The notes below the pieces were generated by a model, which saw nothing but the letters and a program-made list of their open reading frames with translations, searched no databases and was not told where the DNA came from. Below are positions 872-50,200 of a stretch of 64,000 nucleotides of DNA, piece after piece. The DNA comes from Candidatus Eiseniibacteriota bacterium (GTDB lineage Bacteria > Eisenbacteria > RBG-16-71-46): the NCBI GenBank assembly GCA_036505355.1, contig DASXTP010000105.1, positions 2,613 through 66,612 on the forward strand, written 5' to 3'. How positions within the stretch are numbered: position 1 is the stretch's first letter; every line of letters begins with the position of its first letter. The translations under genes and the position numbers were made by a program.

Positions 872-1432
872 TCAGGCACGCAAGAACGGCAGTCCCGTGC
901 ATGTGATGCAGCCACGGAGCTGGCGCTGCGATCGGCGGCAGGCCTCCAGCGCCTCGATCAGGTCGAGCGCGAGCGCATAGCGATCGTCGGGGCTGCCGTT
1001 GGCGAGCTGCTTCTTGGTGAGGGTCCAGACCTGCTCGTCGGGGTTGAGTTCCGGTGCATAGGCCGGGAAGGACTCGAGGCGGAGTCGCGGCAGGCGCCGG
1101 CACAGGGCGTGGGCCACCGGGCGGCGATGAAGCCGCAGGCGGTCCCAGAGCACGATCACCGGGCCACGGAGATGGCGCAGCAAGTGGGAGAGGAAGCCGC
1201 AGACCTCGATCTGGCGGAGGTTGTGATGGTGCCACTGGTAGTAGAGGCCGAGTCGCTGACGGATCGGGCTGACCGAGAGGCCGGAGATGACCGAGATGCG
1301 GTCGTGGCGATCCCAGTGGCGCAGGAGCGGCGTCTGGCCGCGCGGCGCCCAGGTGCGGAGCACGGTGGGCGCCAGCATGAAGCCCGATTCGTCTACGAAG
1401 ACGAGGTGGGCCCCCAGCCGAAGGGCGTTTTT
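872..1432 (-). pseudogene. IS630-family transposase, C-terminal (DDE) fragment only
   Basis: LVFVDESGF and FPAYAPELNPDEQVW are IS630/Tc1-mariner DDE signatures. The N-terminal HTH half is missing. The frame is closed by TAA at an A7 run (1428-1434). Confidence 0.7.
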
Positions 1433-16179: not shown

Positions 16180-17343
16180 TTCGGAATTACCGGACATAGG
16201 GCGTTGAAAACGTGAGACCTGCCTTGTATCCCTTGGTTGCTGTTTGCCAACGGCACCTAGGGACAAGGAGGTCTCACGATGAGGCTTCGACTCAGACGGC
16301 CGACTCGGTTGTGGTTGCGGCGATTGGACCGCAAGACTCGCGACGCCGAAGTTCGGGTGCGCTGTCGAGTGTTGTTGAAGGTGGCGGCCGGGATGACCCG
16401 CCACGCTGCCGCGCGGGCGATCGGCTGTGCGCCCGCGACCGCGTGGCGCATCGTAGCGCGTTTTGAGACCCACGGGGAAGCCGCGCTGATGGACGGTCGG
16501 AGTGAGAACGGACGACCCAAGGTCGACGACGATATACGCGCCGGGATCTGCAAGATCCTGGAGCAGAGCCCGCCGGACTTCGGCTTTCCGCGTCCGACCT
16601 GGACGCTGGAGCTGTTGACGCGTGTGATCCAGCAGGTGCTGCAGGTGGCGGTGTCGGTCGGTCACCTGTGGAAGATCCTGCGGCGGTTGCGCGTGCGCTG
16701 GGGACGTCCGCGTCCAGTCGTGCGCTGCCCGTGGAACGCCGCGCACCGCGCGGCCCGGATCGCGGTGCTGCGCCGCCTGGTGGCGCAGCGGCAGCCGGGC
16801 GAGGTGGTGCTCTACGTGGACGAAGCCGATCTGCACCTCAATCCCAAGATCGGTCCCGACTGGATGCTGCTCGGCACGCAGCGCGAGGTGGTGACCCCCG
16901 GCCAGAACGAGAAGCGCCACCTGGCGGGCGCCTACGATCCCGCCCATCAGCGGCTGGTCTACGTCACCGGCGATCGCAAGGCGAGCTGGCTGTTCCTGAA
17001 CCTGCTGCGCGCCCTGCTGGACGCCTGCCGCTGGGCACGCCGCATCCATCTGATCCTCGACAACTACATCATCCACAAGAGCCGCCTGACCCTGGCGTGG
17101 CTCGGCCGTCACGGCGCCAAGTTGCGGCTGCACTTCCTGCCGCCCTACTGCCCGAACGAAAACCGGATCGAACGCCTGTGGCTCGATCCGCATGCCAACG
17201 TGACCCGTAATCACCGGTGCCGCACCATCGATGAGCTACTGGGCGCGGTTCACCACTACCTCGCCCGACGGTTTGATCTCGCTCAAGTCATTGCCTATGC
17301 GGCCTGACCACAGCCTTCCCGAATCAGGCGAAGGCATTTAGCA
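16158..17343 (+). mobile_element. intact IS630-family insertion sequence (about 1.19 kb)
   Basis: 25-bp terminal inverted repeats TGCTAA(G/A)TGCCTTCGCCTGATTCGG at 16158-16182 and, reverse-complemented, at 17319-17343, flanking a single transposase gene. Confidence 0.8.
16279..17307 (+). CDS. IS630-family DDE transposase
   Basis: N-terminal HTH, then VLYVDEADLHL ... LPPYCPNENRIERLW (DDE with IS630-type spacing). 342 aa with good SD (GGAGG) upstream. Confidence 0.85.
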   Translation: MRLRLRRPTRLWLRRLDRKTRDAEVRVRCRVLLKVAAGMTRHAAARAIGCAPATAWRIVARFETHGEAALMDGRSENGRPKVDDDIRAGICKILEQSPPDFGFPRPTWTLELLTRVIQQVLQVAVSVGHLWKILRRLRVRWGRPRPVVRCPWNAAHRAARIAVLRRLVAQRQPGEVVLYVDEADLHLNPKIGPDWMLLGTQREVVTPGQNEKRHLAGAYDPAHQRLVYVTGDRKASWLFLNLLRALLDACRWARRIHLILDNYIIHKSRLTLAWLGRHGAKLRLHFLPPYCPNENRIERLWLDPHANVTRNHRCRTIDELLGAVHHYLARRFDLAQVIAYAA

Positions 17344-17348
17344 ACAGA

Positions 17349-17510
17349 CGTGGCGTAGGAGAGCCCAGACGCGTTCCGAGAGACCCGGTCGCTCCGGACC
17401 CGCTGCGCGGGTGCCATCCTGGCTGCGCTCCCTGACCCACTGACGCGCGCCGGCTCCTGCCGGTCGCGCTGTCGGGAGTCTCACGGAACGCGTCTGGGCT
17501 CTCCTACGCC
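17349..17510. repeat. MITE-like element / long hairpin with 34-bp terminal inverted repeats
   Basis: GGCGTAGGAGAGCCCAGACGCGTTCCGAGAGAC (17354-17386) pairs with its near-perfect reverse complement at about 17476-17508. The arms are separated by ~90 bp that contain a CCGGTCGC direct repeat. Lies between IS630 and the PHP gene stop. Confidence 0.55.
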
Positions 17511-17528
17511 AGCATGCTGGTCGCCGAA

Positions 17529-28719: not shown

Positions 28720-30432
28720 CTAAAACGAAGAAACCAATCGGAAGTGGAGCTTGCCTTCGGCCGGGGAACGCCCGGGCTCGAGCCCGTAGTCCAGCCCCAC
28801 CAGACCTCCCGCGGCCTCCAATCGCAGGCCGAACCCTACACCGTCCGCGGCCCGCGATACGAGCCGGTCGCCGCCGGTCGGAAGCGGAACGCGAGTGCCG
28901 CTGATGGCATGGTCCCAGAACAAGGCCGCGTAGGGCCGCTCGCCCAGGAACCAGCGCCATTCCAAGCGCGACAGCCCGTAGCGGTCGACCCGCAGCTCCT
29001 GCTCGTCGTGGCCACGCAGGGTGGCCGCACCGCCCAGCGGATAGCGCTCGAACAGTGGCAGCAGGCGCTGCGAGCTGAAGCGTCCGGCACCCGAAAGCTC
29101 CACCGTCCAGCCGGCATGCGACCAGCGCCCGCTGCGCCCGCTCGGGAGATGCCACTCGACATGGCACTCGACCGCGCCGGCGTGCGCGGTCTGGCTCCCC
29201 GACGGGCGAAGCCGCTCCGACTTGTAGGTCTGAGACACCTCCACCCGGGCTCGCCCGCCACGCCGGGCGACCCAGCGATCGTTCCGGACGTCCCACTCGA
29301 ATGCCAGCCGCGTGGTCTTGAGGCTTGCCTCCTCCACCGTCTCCCGGGGCTGCACGACGCGCTCCTGCTCGTAGCCTACCTCGAGCTTCTCCCGACCCGA
29401 CAACAGCAGCTGCACGCGGCCGGCGCCACGGGTCCTGGTGTACAAAGTGTCTTCGACATGCTGCTCGAGCGCGGCTTCGAGCCTGATCGGTGCCATGAAC
29501 ACCAGGGGCTCGGCATAGCGCACCCCGAAGGATTCCACCCCACGCGCGCGCGATTCCCAGGCGAGCCCGGCCGAGCGCCCGGTACCCGCCAGGTTGTCGA
29601 GCTCGAGCCGCAGGTTGCCGACCGCCCCTCCCTGTCCCTGCAAGCCGAGCAGGCCGTCGACCCGGTTGTAGCGCGGCTCCTCCACTCGATAGACGAGCTG
29701 CGCTTGGCGCCAGTCGCTCTCGCCCTCGAGCCCGACGTAGCTCACGGTCCGGAACAGCCCGAGCTGGAGCAGCCGATCCCGAGCCGCTTCGGCAGCCGCT
29801 CGGTCGTAGAGGTTGCCCTCCAGCGACCCGACGCAGCGTCGAAGGATCGCGTGCCGCGTCACACGCAGGCCGTCGATCCGCGCCCGGCTGATCCTGACCT
29901 CGGGGCCCAGCGCCCCACCGACGCGGACCCGCGCACCCGCGCTGTCCCACTCGAGCGAGGTCACGCCCAGCCGGGCATACGGATGCTCTCGCTCGGCCGC
30001 ATGTCGCACCGCCCGAGTCACGGCCTCCCCCAGCGCGCGGGGCGAGGCCCAGCTCCCGGGCTCGAGGCCGAGCGAGGTGGCGAAGGCCAGGGAATCCCCC
30101 GGGACCGGCGTGTCGAGCGTGAGGTTGGCGAGTCGGAACCGGGATCCTTCGTGCACCTCGATCCACAGAGTCGGCTCCGGGATCCCGGTCGACGACAACC
30201 ACGCGGCTTGGGCCTGCGCTTCGAGGTAGCCCATGTTCTGCAGCTCGGTGACCAGCCGTCCCAGCGGCTCGACCAGGGCGGTGGAATCGGGGGTCGCGCG
30301 CAACGCCGTGGCGAACAGACCCTCGACCTGCCGTCGCGTCAGGACGACGCCCCGGTAGTCGAGGTGGGCGGACGCCGCTGTGGCCGTTCCTCCCACCAGC
30401 AAGGTGGCGATCAATACCAGGCGCGCGGTCAT
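28720..30432 (-). CDS. Omp85-family outer-membrane protein (BamA/TamA-like; POTRA + surface-antigen beta-barrel)
   Basis: Signal peptide MTARLVLIATLLVGGTATAASA, POTRA-like N-terminal region, beta-barrel ending ...KLHFRLVSSF (terminal Phe). ATGA overlap with the upstream large gene. Confidence 0.75.
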   Translation of the reverse strand: MTARLVLIATLLVGGTATAASAHLDYRGVVLTRRQVEGLFATALRATPDSTALVEPLGRLVTELQNMGYLEAQAQAAWLSSTGIPEPTLWIEVHEGSRFRLANLTLDTPVPGDSLAFATSLGLEPGSWASPRALGEAVTRAVRHAAEREHPYARLGVTSLEWDSAGARVRVGGALGPEVRISRARIDGLRVTRHAILRRCVGSLEGNLYDRAAAEAARDRLLQLGLFRTVSYVGLEGESDWRQAQLVYRVEEPRYNRVDGLLGLQGQGGAVGNLRLELDNLAGTGRSAGLAWESRARGVESFGVRYAEPLVFMAPIRLEAALEQHVEDTLYTRTRGAGRVQLLLSGREKLEVGYEQERVVQPRETVEEASLKTTRLAFEWDVRNDRWVARRGGRARVEVSQTYKSERLRPSGSQTAHAGAVECHVEWHLPSGRSGRWSHAGWTVELSGAGRFSSQRLLPLFERYPLGGAATLRGHDEQELRVDRYGLSRLEWRWFLGERPYAALFWDHAISGTRVPLPTGGDRLVSRAADGVGFGLRLEAAGGLVGLDYGLEPGRSPAEGKLHFRLVSSF

Positions 30433-33400
30433 CAGAAAAACGCCCTCAGCTCGGCCCGCCCGGTGTGCTGGGTCGCGGCCCCGGAGCGGTCGATCAAGGT
30501 CCAGCTGATCCCGAGCGTGGTGCTCTCGCGCAGGCGGTAGTCGACTCGTGCCGAGCCCTGCCAGCGGGGTGCACCTGCCGGATCCGTCGACGGCAGCAGG
30601 CTCAATGCCGGCGGGCCCCACTGCAGGGCGCGCCGGGCGCTCAGCTCGACGGTGCCGCGGGCGCCCACGGCGACGCTGGCGTCGGGCCCGAGCTGTAGGG
30701 TGCGGGTCCATCCGCTGGCCGCCCCACCGCCGGCGCGAGACCACGAGGCATCGACGCTGGCAGCCGCACGTCGGCGCGCATCCGGAGCAAAGCTCAGCTG
30801 CCCCAACGCGCCTCCTTCGTCCAGCGCGCGGCGGAAAGAGCTGCTGGCTCCGAGCGCCTGGGTGGCCTCTCGGCGATCCCACCGCGCCTCGAGCTCGGTG
30901 GTCCAGCCGGTCCCGGGCCGCGCCCTCCAGCGGGCGCTCGACCGGCGTTCTTCCGAGGTCTGCGAGAAGTTCTCGTAGCCCCGGTCGGAGCTGGCGCGGC
31001 GTTCGAGGCGGAGTCTCAGCGCGCCGGCACGCGACCCGGGTGCCAGCTCGGCCTCGAGGCGCTGACTCAACGACGCTCTCGACAGCCCGCCGTCGCCCAG
31101 CGTGACCGCGGGGGACAGCAAGGCGTCCGTCACGCGCGCCGCGCCGCGCCGCCGTCCCTCGCTTTCGAACGCGAACTCGATCCGGGAGCCGCGCCACGCC
31201 TCGGAGGCTCCAAACTGCCAGGCGAGCCGGGCGCTGGTCGCGGTGCGGCTCACGGGACGGAGCGCCGGGTCGACCGTCAGGGACAGATCATAGCTCCCGG
31301 TACCCACCAGGTTTCCCAGACTATCGTAGGCTCCTTGGCCGGGCCCGACAAAGGTCAACACTCGCCGGCGCGCGTTCTCGCCTTCGCTCGTGATTTCGAG
31401 GTTCAAGATCCCGGACAGTCCGCGCCTGGCGTCGGCGGCCCGCAGCCGCGCGCTGGCGAGATCACTCCGCGTGCGTCGCGCGTCGGCGAGGGGCATCCAC
31501 TGGCGGCGTTGGTAGCTCAGCACCGCCCCCCAGGGGGCTGCGGCCGGCGTCTGCAGGCCGAGGCTCGCGGTGCGGGCTTCGGCCTGATCCTCGAACCCGA
31601 GGGCCGTCAGCCGGGCCTCGCGCCGCACCGCATATCCGGCCTGGCCCTGCCAGGCCAGGTTTCGGGGGCTGCGCAGCTCGCCGCCCAGCTCTCGAGAGCG
31701 TTCTCCGACCCGCCCGGTGTCGCTGGGGAAGCGGCGTTCGTCCCAATCCCCGCGCACCCTCGGCTCGAGCCACGGCAGCTGGAGTCCGAGCTCGCCGCTT
31801 TCCCGCTCCCGCCCGCCTCGCGGAAAGGAGATCCGATCCTGTTCCCCGTCGGCACGATCCCAGCGCAGCAGCGTGGTCACGGTCCCGCTGTTCCGCCACT
31901 CGGCCGAGCGCCGCCACGATCGAAAGCCGTCGGGGGTCTCGAGCCGGCCGAGCATCGCCTTGAGCTCGCCCCCCAGCGGACGCAAGAACCCCGAGACTTC
32001 GGTGCGCGTCTGGTGATCGAGGTCGCCGCCCGAAGGCAGTCCCCAGTCCTCCTCCGTGAAAGGCCGCTCGAGCCGGCTGAAGGGTTGGAAACGGGATTCC
32101 ACGGTACGCAGCCGGGCCGACAGCCCGCCGTGGCGGCCGAGCCAGAACGGCACCGCACCTTCCAGGGCCAGCGACGCGCTGCCCGCACGCCCCAGGTTGT
32201 CGTCGTCGTCCCGCGACGAGAAGGTGTTGAGATCATGGCGGGAGAGGGCCCCCTCAAGGTCGAGGGTCGCGGGGCCACGGCGGACTCCGCCCGCCAGGCT
32301 CCAGAGCTGGCGGGAGTCTGGCAGCGGCAGCGAGCGCCCGATTCGGTACTCGCCGTTGCCGCTGCCCACGTAACGGTAGGCGATCCGACCGGCGCTCGAG
32401 CCCGACTCCGCATAGTCCCCGCGCCCCGCTCCGACTCGCGTGAACTGCAGGGCATAGCGCCCCGAATCGCGTCCCACGAACACGAACCCCGAATCCGGGC
32501 TCAGATCATAATCGCCTCTTCCGCTCGTCACCCCACCGCCGAGCGCCGCGCCGGCCGAGTCGCCGGCGGCCGCCAGCACCAGGCGATCCCCGGCGTCGAA
32601 GGCCGTCCCGAGCGGCCGCCCGCCGTCGTCGTACTCGGTGAGCAGCGTGGTGTGCGCGTACCAGCCGCCCCGCTGCCAGCTCGCCGCGGTGGCCGCCAGG
32701 TTGCGTCGGAATCGGTTGACCGCGAACTGGTACTCGACGGTGATGCGCGACGCCGAGGTGATCGGTCGCCGGTTCGTGAAGGTGAGGCGCGCCTGATCGT
32801 AGTCCATCGCGTAGTCGGCGCTCTCGCCGCGGATCAGTCGCTCGCCGTCGACCGTCACCACCTCGCTTCCAGGCACCACCGTGATTCCGGTGCCGCCTTG
32901 GCGGTCGGTGAGCAGGTACGGTCCTTGGCGCCCTTCGACGCCGAAGAACTGCAGCCGGTGGTACTCGCCCTGTGCGCTGGCCGCGGCCACCACGCCGCGG
33001 AGATCACCGGTGCCCCACTCCCCGCGCACGCCCTGGAGGTGGCGCTCGAGGCGCGCGAATTCGCCCCGCTGCAAGTTCAAGCTGACGTCGCCGAGCGCCG
33101 CGCCTCCGTTCGGCGCTCGCAGCTCGATCAGCAGGCGATCGATCGATTGGAGATCCTGGGTGCTGCCTTCGGCCGTGAGCGGTGTATTGCGGTCCGAGAG
33201 CACGCCGGTGAGCTCCACCCCCGGCGCTAGCGTACCGGTCACCCCCAGATCGAGCGATTGGCGGAAGAAGGCGTCCTGGTTGGAGCCGAAGTCGACGGCG
33301 ACCGTCTTGTTGCCGGTCAGCAACAACGAGGTCCCGATCGGGGCTTCGGTGGGGGATCGCGCGGTCATCCGCCGGGGCGTGAACCACCCCGGCTCGACCG

Positions 33401-33775
33401 GCTGCGAATCGACGGCGGCGCCGGACCCGACGGCAGGCACCGGGTGGTACGCCTGCAGCTGCAGTTCGAGCGGCGGCGGGTCCATCAGCCAGCAAGCCCG
33501 AACGAGCAGGGTCTCGCCCGGGATCGGCTCGCGCAGCAGCCTCAGAACGCCACGCGTCCGGTCGAGCGCGTAGTCGACATCGCGCAGCAGAGAACCCCGG
33601 GCGGTCCAGATCGAATCGGTCCCGGCGCGCAAGAAGGCGTGGGGCAGGAGGTATTGAACGGTGCTCGACCGCTGGACCACCGCCACGACACCACAGGCGG
33701 GGTCCGAGACTACCGCCGCCGGCTCCCCGGCCGCCACGCACCGAGCCATCATCAACGCAGCGAGCATCCACCCCC
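30432..33775 (-). CDS. large (1114 aa) beta-rich envelope protein translationally coupled to the Omp85 gene (TamB-like partner or giant OMP; function uncertain)
   Basis: Gly/Arg/Asp-rich repetitive beta-strand-like sequence with a C-terminal ...AELRAFF beta-signal-like ending. Start chosen at MLAALMMARCVAAG after GGGGGTGG. No enzymatic motifs. Confidence 0.45.
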
Positions 33776-33847: not shown

Positions 33848-35007
33848 TCATGGTTTTCGGCCTCGCAGCTCGAGCGACGGATTCGGCTCGGCCTTGATCT
33901 CGTCCACCACGGCAATGCGCACGGCCCAACGCGCCACCCGGCCGGGAGCGGTCTCGGCCACCAGCAGAGAGCCGAGCACGCCCGGAGCGAACGCCACGGC
34001 CCTGGGCCGGAGGAAGTCGTGCCGCTCGGCCAACAGCGCACCGTTGGCGCGGAAGATCCACACGGCACCTGCGGCTTCGTCTGCCACCGCGACCCCGCCC
34101 GAATCGTCCACGGCCACCGCCAACTCTCCGGCCGTCGCCGAGCGGGCCGGGAGCGGGAGTCGCCAGGTGGCGCGGACCGAGCCATCCTGACCGAGCCGCT
34201 GCACGCGCGCGCTCGAAACCTCCACGGTGACCAGATCGCCGCGGGGCGCGACCGCGACCGCCCGCAGCCCGCGGAACGAGCCGGGAGTCGGGCCGAACCC
34301 GCCGATGGCGCGACGGAAGCGGCCCGCGAAGTCGAAGGCCAGGATGCGCTCGCGGGCGGCGTCCACCACGAAGAGCGCACCGCCGCGATCGGCCGCCAGG
34401 CCCGTGGGATCGACACGTCCCAGTTGGCGCTCGAGCTCCGGTGAGCCCAGGTCCACGGCGACCCCGAGCCGCCGGCCAAAGAAGTCGTACGTCAGCACCC
34501 TCCGGTTCTCCCGGTCGAGCACCGCCACGCCGAGACCGCCGAGGACCACCACAGAGCCCGGCCGCCGCATCTGCCCCGGATCGCTGCCGAGGGCGCCCGT
34601 CTCGCCCAACAGCCGGCCCGCTCGATCGAACCACTGGAGGCGGTGGAGCGCGGCGTCGGAGACGTACACTTGCCCCATCGAATTCACCGCCATCCCCGCC
34701 GGCTCGATCACCTGACCGGGACCGTCGCCGCTCCCGGCCAGGGTCGACATCTTCATCAGCACGACGCGCTCGTTGCCCGGTCCGCGGGCGGGGGGAACCG
34801 CCGACGGCGCCGCGGGCAGCGTGTCGGGGCGTTCGGAGGGAACCGGTGGAGCCACGGTCGCCGCAGAGTCCGAGCCCGGCGACGAGTCCGCGAACGATGC
34901 CGCGACCCTCGGATCGGGAGCCACCGAAGTGACCGCCCGCGGCGGCGAACTCGCGGCCGCCGAACTCTCCCACGGCAGGGCGATCCAAGCCGTGGCCAGC
35001 GCCCGCA
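33848..35007 (-). CDS. NHL-repeat (six-bladed beta-propeller) protein with signal peptide and Pro/Ser/Ala-rich linker
   Basis: GTG start gives MRALATAWIALPW. Linker SSPPRAVTSVAPDP...PPARGPG. Repeated blades of the type GxxxxPxGxAVdxxGxxYVxDxxnxRvxxf (e.g. GQVYVSDAALHRLQWFD, GALFVVDAARERILAFD). Confidence 0.65.
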
Positions 35008-35036
35008 CGAGGGGAATGCCCCCCCGTCGGCTCCAC

Positions 35037-35175
35037 TTGAAATGGCGCGATCGACTGCGTTGGCTCGGTCGGTTGCTTCCTCGATGCGGCTTGAAGACCA
35101 CGATCCCCGGGCACCCGCCGCAGGCGGGTCGCCATCCTTCGCACGCCTTGCGCTCGGACGTTTTCAAAACGGAGC
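35037..35175. repeat. ~135-bp repeated intergenic element, copy A (about 80% identical to copy B at 46105-46235)
   Basis: Shared blocks: GAAAACG, CTGCGTTGG(C/T)TCGGTC, GAAGACCACGATCCC, CTTCGCACGCCTTGCGCTCG, CGTTTTCA. Lies 30 nt upstream of the NHL-repeat gene start codon. Confidence 0.6.
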
Positions 35176-35192
35176 CTTCCGCAGCCTGCGGC

Positions 35193-36070
35193 TCAGAAAT
35201 GCACGCGCACCCCGAACTGAAACGCGGTCGGGTCGCCACCGACCGGGACGCACTCCAGATTCCACGACCGCGCCGCCGCCGCGGCGCCGCCCGCATAGCG
35301 GGCGGCGTGGATCGCGCTCACCAACCGGTTGGCGATCGCCAGGGCCAAGGCGGTGTTGGCCCGAAGCGCCGCGCGTTCGGCGCGCTTGCGCTCGTCGCCG
35401 TATTGGCGATAGCTCTGCTCGTCGGCCCACGCCCAGGTGTCCGAGCCCGTGAGCTGGTGCTGGGCGATGTATTGGTTGTACGCCGCCGGATCGCCGTAAT
35501 AGAGGTTGGCGGCGTCACGCCGGACCACCAGCCGATTGTATTCGTCGCTGCTCGGGTACTGCCCGACGATGCGACGGAACTCTTCGTCCCGCGACCGCAG
35601 GTCGATCCCGGCGAACAGTTGCGCCGTACGCTCGTAGGTCAGGCGCCGCAACTGCTCCTGGATCCGAAACGAGGTGAACGAGGCCCAGACGCCGACCTCG
35701 GCCACGGCAAAGACCTTGGCCGAGGTGCGCCGGCCGAGCGTGGCTTGGCCCCACCCCGGAACCGTGAGCGACTGGAGGAGAATGCGGGCGCGTTCGACCC
35801 CGAGCCCACTCACGTGCCCGCGCCTTCCGCTGATCGAGGACCGCCGCTCGCCCCGGCCCGTGGCGAACCCCTCCATCGCGGATGACGCCAGGGCGAGCCG
35901 CGAGCACTCCACCGGCGAGCCGGTCCCGTGCGCATCGAGCGGCAGGGCCCGATCCTCGGCACCCGACCACGAAGGATCGAATGGTGCCGCGGTCCGGGCG
36001 CCCAACTCGGGCCCTTCGCTCCATCGCTCGGCTCCTGATGCTTGCGTCGCGGCCGGGCCCACCGTCATCA
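35193..36070 (-). CDS. conserved hypothetical secreted/outer-membrane protein, VPGWGQ-motif family (paralog 2)
   Basis: LLQSLTVPGWGQATLG...WASF and Tyr/Trp-rich C-terminal half ending ...FQFGVRVHF (terminal Phe). About 35% similar to the adjacent paralog. Confidence 0.5.
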
Positions 36071-36109
36071 TGGCAAGCCCGACCCACGCTCGCAGGACCA
36101 CTCGAGGCC

Positions 36110-40389: not shown

Positions 40390-41337
40390 CTAGAAGCGGT
40401 AACCGAGCGTGAGCTTCTTCACGTACCCGAGACCCGAGTCCTTGGCCTCCGGGATGCTGCCCAAGTCCAGGTTCAGGCCCTTGAAGGTCACCCCGATCCC
40501 ATACGTGAAGTCGCTGATATCCCCCAGCGGATCCTCGTACCATCCGATGCGGCCGGCCAACTGATCCGCATACCGTAGCTCGAGCCCACCGTTGTAGGTG
40601 CGGAAGTCGTTGGTGACCAGCGATTGGTTGAAATCGCCGACCATCAGGGCTCCATAGTTCTTGTTCGAATAGGCCTCCCACGCGAACCCGGCCTTGATGT
40701 TCCGGCCCAGCGGATCCGCCTTGTCCGCGTCGACGAACGCCACGCTGGGGCCCAGGTTCTGCACGTTCATTCCGAGGCTGAGCCGTGCCGCCGGGATCCG
40801 GTAGAGGCTCGCCAGATCGAGCCCGAACGTCGCGCCCACGCCCCCCGGATTGTCCGGATCGAGCTGGATGCGGATGTACTTGAGCGAGGCGCCGAGCGCG
40901 AACTCGGGAAGGATCTGCGTCCCGTAGTAGAGGGCGGGCGAGAACTCGTTGGAGCCGAACGTGCCCTGGGGGTCTCCGGTCTGGCCGGTCCGGTCGCTCT
41001 GCCCATAGGAAAGGAACACCACGCCGAGCCCGAGCGCCCCCCACCCCTGCACCGGGTGGACGTAGGTGAGGTAGTTGTAGCTCACGTCGCTCGCCAGGCT
41101 GGGGACGAGCTGCGCGTAGGTCAGCTCGACCGCTTTGCGATTCACGAAGCCGAGGGCGGCCGGGTTCCACCACGTCGCACCGGTCGGATCGTCGGCCACG
41201 GCCACCCCGGCGGCCCCCATCCCGTTCTGTCGGCCCCCGGGCTGGATATCGAGAGATCGGCCGGTGCCCTGGGCCCCAGCCGAAGAGGCCAGGATCAAGC
41301 CCAGGAGCACGACCAAGAGATTGCGCAAGAACCGCAT
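40390..41337 (-). CDS. porV: PorV/PorQ-family outer-membrane beta-barrel protein (FadL-like; T9SS cargo shuttle homolog)
   Basis: Signal peptide MRFLRNLLVVLLGLILASSAGAQG. N-terminal GGRQNGMGAAGVAVADDPTGATWWNPAALGF matches the PorV signature (GMGGAGVA...NPA). Ends ...LTLGYRF. Located directly downstream of the porU-like gene, as in Bacteroidota. Confidence 0.7.
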   Translation of the reverse strand: MRFLRNLLVVLLGLILASSAGAQGTGRSLDIQPGGRQNGMGAAGVAVADDPTGATWWNPAALGFVNRKAVELTYAQLVPSLASDVSYNYLTYVHPVQGWGALGLGVVFLSYGQSDRTGQTGDPQGTFGSNEFSPALYYGTQILPEFALGASLKYIRIQLDPDNPGGVGATFGLDLASLYRIPAARLSLGMNVQNLGPSVAFVDADKADPLGRNIKAGFAWEAYSNKNYGALMVGDFNQSLVTNDFRTYNGGLELRYADQLAGRIGWYEDPLGDISDFTYGIGVTFKGLNLDLGSIPEAKDSGLGYVKKLTLGYRF

Positions 41338-41441: not shown

Positions 41442-44400
41442 CTAGCGATTGACGATCACGAACCGCCCTTCCGCGTGGGCCTTCTGGCGGTCACTGCTGG
41501 TCCCATTCGGGGCCCGCGGATTGACGTGCACGCGGAACAGGTAGACGCCGTTGGCGAGCACTCCACCCTCGTCGTCCCGCCCATCCCATGGGATCTGCAC
41601 CTGCCCCAGACCACCCAGCGCCTCCAAGGTCCGGACCAGTCGTCCCGACACCGTGTAGATCCGGAGCAGCACGTTGACCGAATCGCCCGGCGCATCCACC
41701 ACGAAGCTCCCTCCGGCACCCGGGCCTCTCGAAGCGGTGGGGTTGGGGAACAGCAGGGCCCGCTCGACCTTGAGCCCGGGATTGTCGGACACCTCGAAGT
41801 CGATGACGGCGGTGGAGCGGTGTTCCGCGGCGGCGATCCCGAACGCGAGATTGTCGGCGGCGCTCACGACGATGCGGTGGGGCCCGGAGCTCAGTCCGGG
41901 CAACTGGTAGGTGGCGGTGCCGGACTGGTACGAATCGGCTGCGTAGCGGAAGCTCGAGGTGATCTCCTGGCGCTGTCTCGAGCTCCCGTCGGTGGTGACG
42001 ACGATTCCGTTCTGCGGTTTGTGGCCGGTGATCAAAATCCCGTTCGGATCGAACAGGTCAACACGCAACACCGCGGTCGGTCGCACCGAGCGGGCGTTCC
42101 CCGGGAACGAGAGCGTGATGTGTGGGCCTTCACGGTCGTCGGCAGGCGGCGTGCCGACTGCGACCTCGAAGGGCAGACTGCCGGCGCCGTCCGAATCCGC
42201 CGGCGCGCCTTGGACGTAGGCGCGAGCCCGTGCGCGCGGACCGGCCACTCCATCCATGGGCACCACGAATCGGCCCTCGAACCGGCCGCCCGATAGGCGA
42301 ACGTCGCCACGGAACATCGGCGCCGCGCGAAACGGATACGTCTTGCAGACACCGAAGGCGCAGTCCGGGAGCGTGTCGACGGGCGCGGAATCCTCGATCA
42401 ACAGCGAGGCGCTGCCATCGAGCGGTATCGGCGCCCCCCCGGGCCGTTCGACCACCTGGCCACGGATCGTCAGGCGCCGCCCCCGGATCGCCTGACCCAC
42501 GGCGTTGCCAAACGAGTCCTCGAGCGCCACCTCGACGAACAGGCGCGGCAGGAGCAGGCGGGTCGCCGCGTCACCCATGAGCTGATACTTCTGGTTGTTG
42601 GTGCCGCCGGTCTTGGCAGCGAGCAGGGCCGTGCTGAGCGTGTTGAAATACTGACCACTGGCCGGCTCGCGCTCGAACACCTGGTGGAATAGCGCCTGGT
42701 TGAGCGAGGCGTTGATGTTGGTGAGCGCCAGCTCGGTGGCCGAAATCACGCCGATACAGCCACCGTTCGGATTGAGGATGAGCCGCTCCCCCAGGCTCTG
42801 CACCGTGGGGTCGTTGTACCGGCCGACGTCGCAGGAGGCGGCCACGAACACGCTCGGGCGCGTGGCGTTCACCATCCCTTCGGCATCGGTGTCGAGCAGC
42901 ACGCTCTCGTCGGCGATCTTGAACGGGCTGCCGTGGCCGATGAAATTGAACAACACCACCCCTTGGTTCACCTCGTTCAGGATGTCGTTCCGCGCGGCGG
43001 GCTTGGTGTCGTTTGGCCCGTCCGGGTAGCGGTGCAAGTACACATAACCGCGGTCGATATGGGCGGGCAGGGCGTCGCGGTCGAGGGCCGCGGTCTGCTC
43101 GACATGGAGCCAGGCGAGCGGGTCGGGGTCGGCGCCCGCCTTGTCGTCGTCGGCGATCAGCATCACGCGGTTGCGCCAGTCGCCGAGCGGCGCACCGCGT
43201 TCGTAGGCCACCAGCTTGCGCACGTAAGCCAGCGCCCCCGCCGCGTCGCGGGCCGGAATCCGACCACCCTGGAAGTCCGGGATCACCTGCGTCGGGTTGT
43301 CCACGTTGAGCAGCCAGTCATCGGTCGCGAACTGGCGCAGCACCAGGAAGTTGAGATCGAAGCCCCCCTCGTAGCTCGGCAGCAGCCCGGGCGAGAACCC
43401 GACCGGAGCACCTCCCTTGAAATTCTTGAAGTCGGAGGTGGCATCCCCGAGCAGGGTCACGAAGGTCGGCACCTTCCCCCAATGGAACGCCGCGTGCAGA
43501 AAGTTCCGGACCGCCCCGGGATCGGTACGGCCGCCGGAGAACTGGTCGTACACCGCCGACAGCGGCACCGAGACGGCCTCGTAGGGCGGATCCGATGCCA
43601 GCGGCAGGTGATCGCGGCGCCAGGCCAGCAGTTCTTGGGCGGCGAATTGCAGGCCGTCCAGGTAAATGATCAGGTAGTCGGCGCGGTGCGTGAGGTCGCG
43701 AAGGTTTTCGAGGCTCGAGCTGGGCGCGTCGAACACCTCGCTGTTCGGCAGCTTCACGATCCGCGACGCATCCGGCCAGTCAGTGACGATCCGGTATCGA
43801 CGAACCTCGCCTGCCCCGGCCTCAACCGGCCGAAAGCGTAGTCGCCACGCGCCCGGGCCGAGCTGATCGTAGCCGGGCGGAAGGACGGTGATTTCGATCG
43901 GTTCCAGAGGATTGGTGACATCGAACACCCGCGGCATCGAGTCGGGGCCCACGGTGAAGGGTCCGATCCGGTAGATGTCGTCGCCGGTCGTCGGCGGTGC
44001 CTCGAATTCGAGCTGGTTGCCTACCGGCTCGAAGCGCCGCTGATAGAAGAGGTCGAACCACGCCACCCCGACCCGGTCCACCCGCAGCGGGGCGAGCCGC
44101 GGATCGCGGTCGATGTAGTCCACCACCGTCATTTCCAGACGGGCGCCGCTCTCGGCCAGCCCGGTGAATGTGGTGTCGAACGTCTGGGCGCTCTGGAGCC
44201 CGGCACTGACATCGGCGCCGTTCCCGTTCCAGCCCCGGCGCGGGAAGCTCAACGACCCCAGGCGGACGTCCACATAGTGATCGAAGACTCCAGGACTCTT
44301 CGGGGTAGGCACGGCGGGCAGCTCCGGGAACGGCGGCAGGCCCCACAGCCGCAGCCTCAGCCGCGCCGGCTGGCTCGGATCGATCCCGGGGGCTGCAGCC

Positions 44401-45818
44401 TCCGGAGCGAAGGTTTGGCCGCGATTGAGGCTGGTCCAGAACCATTTCTCCCAGAACAGAGTGCTGCGCTGATAGCTGCCGTCGTCCTCAAGGCCCGTGA
44501 TCGGCGAGGCGGAGGGCCAATACTCGTTGTCCGCCTCGTGATGGAGGCGCTCCGGAAAGCTCAGGGGCGTCACGGCGACGGTCGTGTCCAGCAACGCCCG
44601 GGACCTGGACGCGATGCGCAGCGACGAGTCGGGCATCGGGTCTTCGGTCGTGGCGATCGTCAGGTAGTAGTAGTTGCGGGTCTCGTAGGGATGGTCGATG
44701 GAGGTCGTCTCGGGCTGGGAAGGGTCGTAGAAGTTCGCCCAGTCGCTGGGACCGAGGGCGAAGAAGTAGAAATACTCTTGGTTTTTGTTGAACTTCCCGT
44801 CGCCGTCTTCGACGAACTGGATGGCCACCTCCCGCAGGCCGCACGAGTCGCAGTAGCTGTCCTCGGGGAGGACCGGAAGTCCGGGCCAGGTGAAGAGCCT
44901 CAGACTGTCGAGGGGAGTGTTCAGGCTGTCGGCGAAGAGCTCGCTGTTCCGCACCTGGCCGAACTCGACCCGATAGAAGCCGGTCGTCGGGATGGCGATC
45001 TTCACCCACCGACGGCCGGCATAGAGGCTGGTATCGGGCACCACGCTCGCCATGCGCGGCGCGGCAGCCCGACTCGCCACCGGCGCGACCCGGGCCGGGC
45101 GCTCCGCCCCGCGCCAGGCCTTGCCCTGCTCGTAGTTGACCAGCACCGCACGGTACACGGACTCGAACGGGTCCGGAGGCGCAACCGGGCGACTTTCCTC
45201 GGTCCCGCCTTCCCATCGAACCTCGACCTCGACCCGGTGGTGGATGGTGAGGCGGCGATCGGCCGCGTCGTACTCCGCCGGGCGGACCGCGATGCGCGCG
45301 ACGCGCTGGTCCCTCATCCACGAGAGTCCGATCAAACGGGCGACCGAGGGTGGAGGACCGGTTGCGCGTCCGCCGGCGCCCCGCTCGCCGGTCGCAAGAG
45401 CCCAACCCGGCGTCGCTCCTCCGATCATCCCCTCCCCTCGCCCGGCCACGGAGGGGTTCGCGAGCAGGATGCCCTCGCGCACGTCGGTGGCGGCCACGCT
45501 GGCGGTGACTCGAACCGTCCCCTGAGGCGGCACGGCCACGCACAGCACCCGCTCCGGCAACCGCGATTCGCCCGGACCACCGCCTCGATCGTAACCTGGC
45601 AGCTCGAGCTGGAGCCCTTGGCCGGGAGACGGAACGGGCTCGAGTTGGGCCTCCGGGACGTCCACCAGCAGACGCACGCCCGTGGGAGAAGCGGCCAGCA
45701 GCCGCACGGCGCGGGGTTGGGCCTTGACCGTCGCAGGCGCCAGGCACAGCAGCACCAGGTGCGACCGCAGCGCGTGGCGCAGCCCCCGCCGGATCGACCA
45801 CGCCGGCCGAGGGCGCAC
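41442..45818 (-). CDS. porU: PorU-like C25 (gingipain-family) cysteine peptidase / T9SS sortase homolog with C-terminal sorting domain
   Basis: Signal peptide. C25 His/Cys dyad context (FNFIGHGSPF ... VFVAASCDVGRYND). Very large multi-Ig-like body. C-terminal LLFPNPTASRG...VLLRIYTVSGRLVRTL...GVYLFRVHV...GRFVIVNR sorting domain. Start (GTG 45818) uncertain. Confidence 0.65.
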   Translation of the reverse strand: MRPRPAWSIRRGLRHALRSHLVLLCLAPATVKAQPRAVRLLAASPTGVRLLVDVPEAQLEPVPSPGQGLQLELPGYDRGGGPGESRLPERVLCVAVPPQGTVRVTASVAATDVREGILLANPSVAGRGEGMIGGATPGWALATGERGAGGRATGPPPSVARLIGLSWMRDQRVARIAVRPAEYDAADRRLTIHHRVEVEVRWEGGTEESRPVAPPDPFESVYRAVLVNYEQGKAWRGAERPARVAPVASRAAAPRMASVVPDTSLYAGRRWVKIAIPTTGFYRVEFGQVRNSELFADSLNTPLDSLRLFTWPGLPVLPEDSYCDSCGLREVAIQFVEDGDGKFNKNQEYFYFFALGPSDWANFYDPSQPETTSIDHPYETRNYYYLTIATTEDPMPDSSLRIASRSRALLDTTVAVTPLSFPERLHHEADNEYWPSASPITGLEDDGSYQRSTLFWEKWFWTSLNRGQTFAPEAAAPGIDPSQPARLRLRLWGLPPFPELPAVPTPKSPGVFDHYVDVRLGSLSFPRRGWNGNGADVSAGLQSAQTFDTTFTGLAESGARLEMTVVDYIDRDPRLAPLRVDRVGVAWFDLFYQRRFEPVGNQLEFEAPPTTGDDIYRIGPFTVGPDSMPRVFDVTNPLEPIEITVLPPGYDQLGPGAWRLRFRPVEAGAGEVRRYRIVTDWPDASRIVKLPNSEVFDAPSSSLENLRDLTHRADYLIIYLDGLQFAAQELLAWRRDHLPLASDPPYEAVSVPLSAVYDQFSGGRTDPGAVRNFLHAAFHWGKVPTFVTLLGDATSDFKNFKGGAPVGFSPGLLPSYEGGFDLNFLVLRQFATDDWLLNVDNPTQVIPDFQGGRIPARDAAGALAYVRKLVAYERGAPLGDWRNRVMLIADDDKAGADPDPLAWLHVEQTAALDRDALPAHIDRGYVYLHRYPDGPNDTKPAARNDILNEVNQGVVLFNFIGHGSPFKIADESVLLDTDAEGMVNATRPSVFVAASCDVGRYNDPTVQSLGERLILNPNGGCIGVISATELALTNINASLNQALFHQVFEREPASGQYFNTLSTALLAAKTGGTNNQKYQLMGDAATRLLLPRLFVEVALEDSFGNAVGQAIRGRRLTIRGQVVERPGGAPIPLDGSASLLIEDSAPVDTLPDCAFGVCKTYPFRAAPMFRGDVRLSGGRFEGRFVVPMDGVAGPRARARAYVQGAPADSDGAGSLPFEVAVGTPPADDREGPHITLSFPGNARSVRPTAVLRVDLFDPNGILITGHKPQNGIVVTTDGSSRQRQEITSSFRYAADSYQSGTATYQLPGLSSGPHRIVVSAADNLAFGIAAAEHRSTAVIDFEVSDNPGLKVERALLFPNPTASRGPGAGGSFVVDAPGDSVNVLLRIYTVSGRLVRTLEALGGLGQVQIPWDGRDDEGGVLANGVYLFRVHVNPRAPNGTSSDRQKAHAEGRFVIVNR

Positions 45819-45835
45819 CGGTGAGGAGGGGCTCA

Positions 45836-46003
45836 GAACTTCTCGGCCTCCTCGATCAGGAAGTTCGGGATGTCGTCGACGACCTTGTACCGCAGCCGGC
45901 ACCGATGGCAGGTGAAGGTGTTGGCTTCGGCGCTGTACTCCAGGTCGCCCTTGCAGGCCGGACACACCAGCAACGCGAGCAGGTCAGGACTCAGGGCCAT
46001 GGG
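45836..46003 (-). CDS. UPF0434/Trm112-like zinc-ribbon protein (YcaR family)
   Basis: MALSPDLLALLVCPACKGDLEY...FTCHRCRLRYKVVDDIPNFLIEEAEKF: CPxC...CxxC ribbon with the conserved DGIP-like motif. 55 aa. Confidence 0.7.
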
Positions 46004-46104
46004 ACTCCTCGACGGCGAAGATTCGAGTGACCGCCGCGCGGCCGGTCACGGTGAACAAGGGGGTCACAAGGCGCTTGAAATCCTCTCCTCCGGCGGGCGC
46101 GGCA

Positions 46105-46235
46105 AAGTCAGGCCGTGTCTGAAAACGCCCGATCCCTGCGTTGGTTCGGTCATTCCTCGCTCGATGTGGCCCAAAGACCACGATCCCGCTCGTCTCTCCC
46201 TCGCACGCCTTGCGCTCGCGCGTTTTCAGACACAG
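46105..46235. repeat. ~130-bp repeated intergenic element, copy B, with 14-bp terminal inverted repeats
   Basis: GTGTCTGAAAACGC at the left end and GCGTTTTCAGACAC at the right end (perfect inverted repeat). Internal sequence about 80% identical to copy A (35037-35175). Lies ~100 nt upstream of the ycaR-like/porU operon. Confidence 0.6.
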
Positions 46236-46259
46236 CCTAGCCAGCCCCTCGGCCGAGGG

Positions 46260-47243
46260 TCAAGCCGACCCGGCGCCAGCCTCTCCTGATGACTCGCGAA
46301 ACACTCCGATACCCCGATATTTTCGCAGTCGCCCTTCGACCAGCTCATCACCGGATACACCGATCATGGCGTCCAGGTGCCGCACAACCGCCGCCCCGAG
46401 CGTAGCGGCCGCCGCCTCGGCATCCCGGTGGGCACCGCCCAGCGGCTCGGGCAGCACGCCGTCGACGACGCCCAACCGCGCCAGGTCGGACGCGGTGAGC
46501 TTGAGAGCCTCCGCCGCCAACGCGCCCTTCTTGCCATCCCGCCACAGGATCGAGGCACACCCTTCGGGCGAGATCACCGAATAGATCGAGTTCTCGAACA
46601 TCAGCACCCGATCCGCCACCGCAATCGCCAGCGCCCCGCCGGACCCTCCTTCGCCGACGATCACGGTCACGATCGGCACCGGCAGGCGAGCCATCTCCCG
46701 CAAGTTGACCGCGATCGCCTCGGCCTGGCCGCGCTCCTCGGCTCCCAGTCCCGGGTAGGCTCCCGGGGTGTCGACCAGGGTGACCACCGGCATGCGGAAT
46801 CGCGCCGCGGTCTGCATCAGTCGGAGCGCCTTGCGATAGCCCTCGGGGTTCGCCATGCCGAAGCGCCGCTGCAGGTTTTCCTTCGTGTCGCGGCCCTTCT
46901 GGTGTCCGATCACCATCACCGGTCGGCCGTCCAGGAACGCCGGGCCGCCCACCACCGCCGGATCGTCGGCGAAGTGCCGGTCGCCGTGCAGCTCCATCCA
47001 TCCCTGGAAACAGCGATCGATGTAGTCGAGCGCGTAGGGCCGCCGCGGGTGGCGGGCGAGCTGGACTCGTTGGTACGCAGTCAGGTTCGCGTAGATCTCG
47101 CGACGTAGGGCCTCGGCCTTGCGCTCGAGATCGTTGACCTCCGCGCGTGAGTCCAGGCCTCCTTCGGCGGCCTGGGTCTTGAGCTCCTCGATCTTCTGCT
47201 CGAGCTCGAGGACCGGCTTCTCGAAGTCCAGCCAGACCGTCAT
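46260..47243 (-). CDS. accA: acetyl-CoA carboxylase carboxyltransferase alpha subunit
   Basis: MTVWLDFEKPVLELEQKIEELK N-terminus, oxyanion-hole region ...GGSGGALAI..., typical 327-aa length. ATGA overlap with dnaE, the conserved dnaE-accA arrangement. Confidence 0.9.
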   Translation of the reverse strand: MTVWLDFEKPVLELEQKIEELKTQAAEGGLDSRAEVNDLERKAEALRREIYANLTAYQRVQLARHPRRPYALDYIDRCFQGWMELHGDRHFADDPAVVGGPAFLDGRPVMVIGHQKGRDTKENLQRRFGMANPEGYRKALRLMQTAARFRMPVVTLVDTPGAYPGLGAEERGQAEAIAVNLREMARLPVPIVTVIVGEGGSGGALAIAVADRVLMFENSIYSVISPEGCASILWRDGKKGALAAEALKLTASDLARLGVVDGVLPEPLGGAHRDAEAAAATLGAAVVRHLDAMIGVSGDELVEGRLRKYRGIGVFRESSGEAGAGSA

Positions 47244-50200
47244 GTCGCCGCCTTTCCCCAGCGCACCCGAAGCTCCGGGAAGCGCTCCTGAAGCCGCGCG
47301 ATCAGCGCGTCGTCTTCGGCCACGCGGAAGCGCCGGGATCGCAGCGCCCGCCGCAGGTGGTTCGGCCCCACGATGTGTAGATACACCTCCGATTCCCCGG
47401 GGCACGACGACAGGACCTCGTCCACCCCGACCATCCAGTCCTCGCTGAGCTGCTCGGCTCGCATCTCGATGTGGAGGTGCCGGCGATAGGCGCGCTGCGC
47501 GTCTTCGTACGGACCCACTTCGGTGAGCAGCAACCGCACCGGCCGCTCCTCCCGCACCTCGACTCGACCGGTGGCCACCACGACGCGATCCGCCACCAGG
47601 TGCGAGCGCGCCGCCTCGAACGCATCCGGGAACACCGTGCATTCGATTCGCCCGCTCAAATCCTCGAGGGTGATCACGGCCATGCGTTTGCCGCCTCGCG
47701 TGGTGATCGGCTTGACGTCTCCGATCAAGCCACCCACCCGGACCTCGGAGCCGTCTTCGAGCTGGGCCGACTCCGCCACCGAGTGAGTCGTGATCCGCGA
47801 CAGCGACTCGCGCAGCGGCTCGAGCGGGTGCTCCGAGAAATAGAAACCCAACACCTCCTTCTCGCGCGTGCTGCGATCCCGCTGGGTCCACGCCGGAACG
47901 TCCGGCAGCGGAGGCGCGACCACCGCCACGCCCCCCTGATCGGTCCGCTCCCCGAACAGCAGCGATTGCCCGCTTTGCCGCTCGCGGCTCATCGCCGCGG
48001 CCAGCTCGAGCATCGGCCCGGCCGCGGCGAACAGGGCGCCGCGCTCGGGCCCCAGTCCGTCGCACGCCCCCGCCGCCACCAGGCTCTCCAGCACCCGGCG
48101 GTTCACCGCTCGACCCTCCAGCCGCCGTGCCAGGTCGAACAGGTCACGGAAGGGCCCGCCCGCCTCGCGCGCCGCCACCAGCACCTCCACCGCCGATTGC
48201 CCGACGTTGCGCACCGCGCCGAGACCAAACCGGATCTGCCCTTCCTCGAGCCCGAACGTCCACTCCGATCGGTTCACGTCGGGGGGCAGGAGTTCCAGGC
48301 CCAGCCGGCGGACCTCCTGGATCAGGGTCACGATCCGCGCGCTGTCGCCCATCTCGCTGGTCAGGGTGGCGGCCATGAACTCGGCCGGGAAGTTCGCCTT
48401 GAGGTAGGCGCACTGGTAGGCGAGGAGGGCGTAGGCGGCGGAATGGGAGTTGTGGACGACCAGGCCGTTGGCCACGAAATTGTGGTCTACCTCGACGGTG
48501 AGATCGTAAGTGTCTTCAAATCCGCGCGGCTCGATCGAGGTGACGCGGTCCCAGAAGACGTCGGAACAGGCTATGTCCATGAGACGACGAGAGTCGAAAA
48601 AGCGGGCGAGCCTCGCCAACGTGGAGCGTCGGAAGCCACGCTTGAGCCGTGAGCCGTTCCCCGTGGACTCGCGCATCGACACGCCCGATGCTTCCTCGAG
48701 TTCTCGCCACTTGAGCCCCAGCCTGACCCTCTCTTGCGCGACCCATCTCCTGATCTCGGGGGGGATCGTGTCCCGGCTCGTGCGATCAGGTGCCGCATCG
48801 GACACGCGGGCTCTGAGCTGTCCCACTTGTTTCTCTCGGCCGACGATGTGGGGCACAATCGTCTCGAGGAACGTCCGTACCGTATTCTCTCCTAGAAGGT
48901 TCACCGTGAAGCCCCGTTTGAGCCCGCCGCGGTATTTGAACTGTTTCCTGTGGATCCCGCTCACCATCCCGAGCCGCAGCAACAGGGTCTGAACGCCGCG
49001 GGCGAGGCCTTCCGACGAGGTTGCATGGAAGGGGACGGCATTCGTTCGGTTTGCAATGAAGCCGTCGCCGGCCCACAGCCGCCCGAGGAATATCTCGAGG
49101 TCACAATTACGGAGGAGAAAGACCTCACCCGGAATGCGTTTTTCCGTGGCCCTGCAACCGAGCACTCCCAACCGCTGCGCCCACTGGAACGCCCCCGAGC
49201 GTCGCACGGGAGCATCCAGCACCAGTGCGAGATTGCCTTCCGTTGTCGCGAGGTACTCGTCCGCGACCTCTCGAACTCGGCCTGCCGATGGACCCAGATT
49301 GGCGCAGACCTCCATCCTGCCGCCCGGTCGGGTATCGATCCTCGCAACCGTATCGGGAAAACAAGCGATCGCCCGAGCAAAGTCGTCCACCAGCGCCCGG
49401 TCATTGCCGTAGAAGTAGAGACTCGTGGGATGACAGGTGTTGCCCTCGGCGATCAAGCCTGCCAGCGTGATCAACTCGTGCCTGGGCCATGTCCGCCTCC
49501 CCGCTACTTGCAGTCGGCGGGCAACCGCGACCCGATCACCGAGCTTCAACTCGGCCAGATGCTTCCAGCCATCGAGTGTCCGGAACGGATGATTGGCCGT
49601 CGCCGTGATGCGCTTCCCCAGCGCGGTCTGGAGCTCATAGACGAGCTTGCGCCCGTTCCAGACCACGTCGGTAACCTCGCGTGGTCGTAATCGTAGATTC
49701 GCGTCCAGAGCGTGCACCTGGAACGGCCTGCGCTTTTCGAAAAGCGACCGCACGGTCGTCGTCTCACCGGTTGCCGCATGAATGACCTCGGTATCCCCCG
49801 TGAGACAGCGGTTGAACCCGTAGCCGGCGAACTTCTCCATGGTGGCGAAGATCTTCTCGGCCTTCGCCGCCGAGATCTTGCGGTGCCGGCAGCCTTCGAT
49901 GAACGCCAGGCGCTTGGCTTCCATTTCCTCGGGTCGCTTCTTCCCCATCGCCCTTCGCAGCTCGTCGGCTTGGGCCATGGAGAACCCTGCCAGCACGTTC
50001 GCGGCCTGCATGACCTGCTCTTGGTAGACGAACACGCCGTACGTGGCCTTGAGGATCGGCTCCAGGTCGGGGTGGTCGTAGGTCACCACCTTGCGGCCGT
50101 GCTTGCAGTCGATGAAGTAGGGGATGTTCTCCATCGGCCCGGGACGATAGAGCGCGTTCATCGCCACCAGGTCTTCGAACACGGTGGGCTTGAGCGGCCG

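Follow-up and report, generated by a model that had tools for sequence, protein, structure and literature searches.

Insertion of a hairpin-forming, non-coding sequence at two sites within the type IX secretion genes of an Eisenbacteria lineage

Two gene gaps in the type IX secretion cluster of an Eisenbacteria contig each contain a hairpin-forming, non-coding sequence of ~130–150 bp, raising the question of what this sequence is and how it came to occupy both positions. An initial annotation had proposed a shared promoter or 5′-untranslated-region regulatory RNA for secretion genes. The two copies, here termed A and B, lie in a window of 64 kb, meaning the whole stretch of DNA that was analyzed, which belongs to a contig of 100,686 bp in JGI metagenome 3300036864.

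We delimited the copies at the points where their terminal arms pair and read them on the minus strand, which is mRNA-sense and the strand of the neighboring genes (Table 1). They share one orientation and lie 11 kb apart. A repeat family with two copies in the same orientation had been noted at the outset, and homology was confirmed: in a blastn search of the window with copy A as the query, copy B was retrieved at an E value of 5e-11 (0.025 for the runner-up match), and 95 of 127 aligned columns are identical (75%). The mean column identity in a MAFFT alignment was 82%; ~80% had been estimated earlier. Differences comprise one 18-nt and three 1-nt insertions or deletions, the longest of which holds a GC-rich hairpin, CCCGCCGCAGGCGGG, that had already been recognized as an extra feature of A. 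The earlier positions of both copies were likewise right, although the true ends lie slightly further out. Searches of the window using nhmmer (--max) and a covariance model returned exactly two copies, with covariance model scores of 171 bits for A and 145 bits for B. When the contig was extended 9 kb leftward, giving 73 kb of source sequence together with the window, no further copy appeared, and the covariance model found no match beyond A and B in 183 kb comprising the window and related loci. The GC content of the element is 62–65%, versus 69% for its surroundings. Copy A ends 20 nt upstream of the GTG start of the NHL-repeat gene at 35008 (the gene call of the source record) and copy B 109 nt upstream of the ATG of the Trm112/YcaR-like gene at 46000; GAC is seen after both copies.

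Table 1 Features of the two copies and of the genes around them, in window coordinates.
Feature	Position	Strand	Description
Copy A	35029–35176	−	148 nt; between the stop of the 292-aa gene (35193) and the start of the NHL-repeat gene (35008)
A, 5′ arm of closing stem	35154–35176	−	Sense GGCUCCGUUUUGAAAACGUCCGA; pairs with 35029–35050
A, 3′ arm of closing stem	35029–35050	−	
A-only GC-rich hairpin	35114–35128	−	CCCGCC-UGC-GGCGGG; within the 18-nt indel relative to B
A, apical hairpin	35083–35105	−	GAUCGUGGU...GCCGCAUC; common to B
Copy B	46110–46238	−	129 nt; between accA and trm112
B, 5′ arm of closing stem	46216–46238	−	Sense AGGCUGUGUCUGAAAACGCGCGA
B, 3′ arm of closing stem	46110–46132	−	
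B, apical hairpin	46163–46185	−	GAUCGUGGUC-UUUG-GGCCACAUC
Inserted block at site B	46109–46236, or equivalently 46110–46237	−	128 nt relative to relatives
Ancestral −35 hexamer TTGACC	46258–46263	−	trm112–porU–porV promoter; conserved in five relatives; overlaps accA stop
Hybrid −10 hexamer TAGGCT	46234–46239	−	TAG ancestral, GCT = element end
Element end sequence			GGCYGTGTCTGAAAACGC
accA	46260–47243	−	Gene upstream of B
Trm112/YcaR-like gene	45833–46000	−	55 aa; first gene downstream of B
porU	41442–45755	−	After the Trm112/YcaR-like gene
porV	40390–41337	−	After porU
292-aa gene	35193–36071	−	No Pfam match; upstream of A; stop followed by small GC hairpin, then element
NHL-repeat gene	33848–35008	−	386 aa; directly downstream of A
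Outer-membrane-type gene	30432–33767	−	1111 aa; after the NHL-repeat gene

Both copies are embedded in one conserved gene cluster. On the minus strand, dnaE is followed by accA, the 55-aa Trm112/YcaR-like gene (trm112), porU, porV and a gene for an FG-GAP/M6 protein; the cluster continues with two genes lacking a Pfam match, the NHL-repeat gene and the outer-membrane-type (OMP) gene, all on the same strand. This order (dnaE-accA-trm112-porU-porV-...-NHL-OMP) is common to five Eisenbacteria relatives (loci L113, L114, L235, L241 and L242). The copies had been described as preceding two separate operons, a view that does not hold for this arrangement: copy B is part of the 5′ leader of trm112-porU-porV, and copy A falls at a junction internal to the cluster, immediately ahead of the NHL gene. 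The organism was placed in Candidatus Eisenbacteria by its PorU-like C25 peptidase, whose best-named relatives bear that name; with the nearest relative of this protein at most 59% identical, the lineage is poorly sampled. Contigs from other samples sought through accA or the 292-aa protein were not returned. The sole contig from another sample (L112) is identical in sequence to the window upstream of trm112; it begins inside copy B, most likely because of low coverage. A small GC-rich hairpin directly follows the stop codon of the ~290-aa gene in the window (35177–35192, minus strand), in L113 (20425–20440) and in L114 (20410–20432), with a different sequence in each; L242 contains a similar GC-rich stretch at this point, read as sequence and not as pairing.

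We compared both sites with the five syntenic loci, none of which contained a match to the element by nhmmer or the covariance model. The gap at site A measures 18, 19, 28 or 54 nt in relatives versus 184 nt in the window, and that at site B 113–221 nt versus 259 nt. As judged from this alignment of loci, both copies are lineage-specific insertions and the element was gained; at site A, the comparison shows that it entered a very short junction inside the operon. The empty sites prove gain and not recent mobility and, with relatives this distant (porU identity of at most 59%), say little about timing.

At site B, the insertion point could be read to the base. Upstream of trm112, all five relatives carry CTTGACCCT-N12-TTGCTAGACT, and a promoter scan of these relatives identified TTGACC and TAGACT hexamers separated by an 18-nt spacer and accompanied by an extended −10 TG; shuffled versions of this region gave about zero such promoter sites. 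The window reads CTTGACCC...GGCTAG, followed by 128 nt and then by ACTTTGCC. In silico deletion of the 128 nt restores GCTAGACTT and renders the leader colinear with those of the five relatives, including a conserved GCGCC-TTGTGAC block. Because this removal recreates the TTGACC-18-TAGACT arrangement of the relatives, B must have landed inside the −10 hexamer, and the reconstructed empty site shows the insertion point to lie between the TAG and ACT of a conserved sigma-70-type promoter. The ancestral TAGACT was split, with its ACT half now at 46106–46108, while in the hybrid TAGGCT at the junction T, A and the last T are kept and the extended −10 TG is lost. A promoter scan of the window no longer flagged the hybrid −10 site as a promoter. 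Comparison with the empty site TAG^ACT, as reconstructed from the five relatives, revealed at most one duplicated nucleotide at B and, therefore, no target-site duplication, a feature that the initial annotation had named among the signs that would refute its proposal.

Two further features of this leader were observed. The TGA stop codon of accA lies inside the −35 hexamer TTGACC in the window and, read directly, in L113; the hexamer occurs at the called accA end in L241 and L242, and the promoter is located further downstream in L114 and L235. The GCGCC-TTGTGAC block (TTGCGAC in some loci; ~46040–46065 in the window, minus strand) lies between the promoter and the trm112 start and occurs in the window as well as in L114, L235, L241 and L242, four of the five relatives; L113 diverges here. 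Independently of the element, the block may serve the type IX secretion operon as a conserved site of regulation.

In each copy, the ends pair to form a long closing stem. The 23-nt arms of B are 91% complementary and 83 nt apart, and the 64-kb window has just two strong inverted repeats of short range, of which B is one; the stem of A includes two unpaired cells and one bulged U. A small 5′ hairpin and the apical hairpin are common to both copies. The sense strand of B folds at −65.9 kcal/mol (z = −6.3) and its antisense strand at −48.6 kcal/mol (z = −4.0); the fold of A as a whole element is no more stable than those of shuffled sequences (z = −0.94). Across the 21 pairs of the closing stem, 12 are invariant between A and B, three changed on both sides and still pair, four changed on one side through G-U wobble and two are broken, both in A. 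All changed pairs among the outer ten stay paired, and all four wobble cells pair on the sense strand only. Covariation had been suggested initially as a check on RNA structure. Pairing is preserved by compensatory and wobble changes, but the score, obtained from two sequences only, was reached by 76 of 500 column shuffles. Between copies, the outer arms are identical at 11 of 20 positions (55%) and the interior at 65 of 83 (78%). Judged from this pair of copies, the outer arms are less conserved than the interior, which is the reverse of the usual pattern for transposase-bound terminal repeats. Since the arms vary in sequence while their pairing is kept, and the interior is better conserved, the comparison suggests that the hairpin itself is the recognized feature, read as RNA or as single-stranded DNA.

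We also searched for coding capacity, known families and additional copies. No called gene overlaps A or B, and no frame of the element has a gene-like GC3 (at most 0.73, versus 0.85 for porU). No protein in a 5.8-billion-sequence collection shared words with the sense-frame peptide. A single representative-library match to the translated element (P0241) proved to be a false positive, being a genuine repeat protein for which eight weak partial matches had been summed. Rfam 15 yielded nothing at the gathering threshold or at E values up to 10, with chance-level E values of 4.5–5.6 on other segments, and blastn against plasmids and phages gave no match. An exact scan of genome_contigs with an 18-mer retrieved 110 loci, all of them chance matches to the 18-mer alone; the same 18-mer retrieved at least 120 loci in metagenome_contigs, those listed all being chance matches and none of them on the source contig, and two scans of viral_contigs produced nothing real. 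An intrinsic terminator was rejected, as neither stem is followed by a T-run. The core boxes of integron attC sites are RYYYAAC and GTTRRRY; the element ends TGAAAAC and GTTTTCA violate the YYY and RRR positions and there is no integron context, so this class was also discarded.

The reading that we favor, with moderate confidence, is that of a small non-coding palindromic insertion element, similar to MITEs (miniature transposable elements with inverted repeats), ERIC elements or REPINs, that is co-transcribed with host genes. Within one Eisenbacteria lineage, such an element would have been copied to two intergenic positions of the type IX secretion cluster, with the copying mechanism or selection presumably reading the terminal hairpin and not a fixed end sequence. 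Together, the missing duplication at B and the arms that vary in sequence while keeping their structure would point away from a classical DDE transposase and towards a hairpin-recognizing mechanism. Transcribed with its host genes on the minus strand, the element would fold there into a long stem-loop, and effects on expression would be a side effect. At B, the promoter would be weakened to TTGACC-18-TAGGCT and the leader would gain a stem-loop near its 5′ end; at A, a hairpin would be added between two cistrons. By analogy with Correia and ERIC elements, for which comparable effects are documented (PMC10969869), the insertions at A and B could change how the mRNA is processed or how stable it is.

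What characterizes MITEs of prokaryotes in general, and how they influence expression, has been described (PMC10969869). Set against these, both copies are short (129 and 148 nt, below 500 bp) and non-coding, the 23-nt arms of B fall within the ~4–30 bp of typical terminal inverted repeats and the element is present or absent at orthologous sites, in a comparison with distant relatives (at most 59% porU identity). Flanking direct repeats are absent at B; target-site duplications can decay with age (PMC10969869). Further observations count against a mobile element. Only two copies exist in 73 kb, in one cluster and one orientation, an arrangement compatible with either a low-copy mobile repeat or a cluster-specific regulatory RNA. 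Besides the lack of a target-site duplication at B, we saw no insertion sequence whose ends match and that could be the parent, conservation is lower in the outer arms (11/20) than in the interior (65/83) and the GC content of the element is only a little below that of the adjoining sequence.

The contig carries further mobile DNA in the form of an IS630 element, another palindrome and a DnaE intein. The IS630-family insertion sequence (16160–17343), the only complete insertion sequence in the window, has ends unrelated to those of A and B. With an 8-nt match (TGAAAACG) as the sole similarity, derivation of the copies from it was rejected. Pfam annotation of the genes on the contig (~73 kb) revealed neither a Y1 transposase nor a RAYT gene. 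The IS630 element features 25-bp terminal inverted repeats and a 327-aa transposase gene (16279–17307, plus strand; source call). It is on record on the source contig only, and its transposase offered no route to other contigs of the same genome; short contigs from other samples carry copies with 83–92% identity. At 872–1378 (minus strand), an open reading frame of 168 aa with a DDE_3 transposase domain only is probably what is left of another IS630-like element, or its second half. Directly to the right of the IS630 element lies a near-perfect palindrome of 161 nt (17351–17511) with 34-nt arms that are 97% complementary and a 93-nt spacer; a 28-nt stretch at 659–686 is complementary to one of its arm ends plus flank. 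This palindrome is unrelated in sequence to A and B and may represent a second hairpin-repeat family. DnaE (47240–52033, minus strand) measures 1597 aa and contains an intein carrying a LAGLIDADG endonuclease domain, whereas the four relatives with a complete gene (L113, L114, L242 and the P0004 contig) encode proteins of 1142–1144 aa without intein domains.

Several of the same data could be read differently, as a lineage-specific structured cis-regulatory RNA, located in a leader or between cistrons, that was duplicated within the secretion cluster and kept by selection to co-regulate trm112-porU-porV and NHL-OMP. It might act, for example, as a stem-loop bound by a protein or RNase and might have originated as a mobile repeat, to be recruited only afterwards. 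Both copies are sense-oriented and occupy transcribed gaps of a single functional cluster, no other copy being present in 73 kb, and the 17 kcal/mol advantage of the sense over the antisense fold of B, the better conserved interior, the retention of every changed pair among the outer ten and the four wobble cells that pair on the sense strand only all agree with an RNA. However, two sequences give covariation almost no power, as seen from the 76 of 500 shuffles that reach the score, the folding of copy A in its entirety does not surpass that of shuffled sequences (z = −0.94), Rfam provides no match and five relatives run the same cluster without the element. In addition, the hybrid promoter at B would be expected to start transcription inside the 5′ arm, so that the outer stem could form only in read-through RNA. 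We consider this explanation unlikely. A related proposal, of a dedicated RNA, as opposed to selfish DNA, that was copied to two transcription units, is maintained through selection for pairing of the sense strand, couples trm112-porU-porV with NHL-OMP and may replace the promoter after loss of the −10, appears to us slightly less likely still. The regulatory RNA of the initial annotation is, thus, retained in part: with sense-oriented copies in transcribed gaps and a stem that remains paired through compensatory changes and through wobbles confined to the sense strand, the element may act as RNA, but the attached ECF promoter is not upheld.

A one-off local duplication, lacking both mobility and function, in which one copy templated the other through ectopic repair or recombination, would account for there being only two copies, for their 11-kb distance and shared orientation and for the absence of a target-site duplication. 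It leaves unexplained where the first copy came from, both sites being empty in relatives, why the ends are clean and hairpin-bounded at both sites and why changes in the arms are compensatory, and we regard it as quite unlikely.

An ECF-sigma promoter within the element, TGAAAAC-N14-CGTG, had been proposed to drive both downstream gene sets. The motif is indeed present on the sense strand of both copies, but as A and B share it by homology alone, this amounts to one observation and not two. In characterized ECF promoters, AAC and CGT are separated by about 16–17 nt, a spacing that tolerates little change; here it is 14 nt in both copies. Relatives transcribe the trm112 operon from a sigma-70-type TTGACC-18-TAGACT promoter with an extended −10 TG, and their site A is a tight internal operon junction without a promoter. 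Furthermore, the Pfam annotations of the contig's genes revealed no ECF sigma, and a transcript begun at the proposed motif would be devoid of the 5′ arm, the sole part showing covariation. The idea keeps some force because the ancestral promoter of the window is damaged, having neither a consensus −10 nor the extended −10 TG, and yet something must transcribe porU and porV, so that a replacement could be needed; in Porphyromonas, type IX secretion genes are under an ECF sigma. Overall, a shared ECF promoter is not supported and appears very unlikely. A second motif, GAAC-N16-CGTT, with canonical ECF spacing occurs on the sense strand of copy B only (46146–46125, minus strand); it was rejected as a shared promoter, as it is not conserved in A.

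Repeats that form small hairpins are familiar from cultured bacteria but are not known to have been described from Eisenbacteria, a phylum known from metagenomes only. Site B provides a base-exact empty site for an insertion inside the −10 hexamer of a phylum-conserved promoter that serves the core secretion genes porU and porV and, thus, a natural experiment on how an insertion rewires promoter and leader. If the element were restricted to secretion genes, it would constitute a new cis-regulator of type IX secretion outside Bacteroidota.

Under the favored reading of a palindromic insertion element, three groups of known small repeats invite comparison. REPINs are paired inverted REP sequences that are moved by RAYT transposases and typically reach high copy numbers of tens to hundreds. 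Like these, the element consists of two inverted arms of ~23 nt and a spacer that form one long hairpin, is extragenic and lacks a target duplication. In REPINs, the hairpin on one strand is said to be the recognized form, reportedly according to Bertels and Rainey in 2011. Unlike in REPINs, the arms are not conserved in sequence between copies, and no RAYT was seen among the annotated genes of the contig. ERIC (or IRU) elements of enterobacteria are 127-bp imperfect palindromes, close in size to the element described here, which resembles them in being an imperfect palindrome that forms a long RNA stem-loop, occupies transcribed intergenic gaps of operons and encodes no protein. ERIC elements have been reported to affect mRNA decay (PMC10969869). 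They differ in belonging to another phylum, with no sequence relation claimed, and in numbering tens to hundreds of copies, as compared to two known here. The Correia repeat-enclosed elements of Neisseria, at ~100–155 bp and bounded by inverted repeats, are again similar in layout. Their 26-bp ends are conserved in sequence and their TA target is duplicated, whereas in our element the outer arms vary between copies and site B, which could be reconstructed, exhibits no duplication. Correia elements insert next to or inside promoters, where they can create hybrid promoters, and the paired ends of their RNA are cut by RNase III (PMC10969869).
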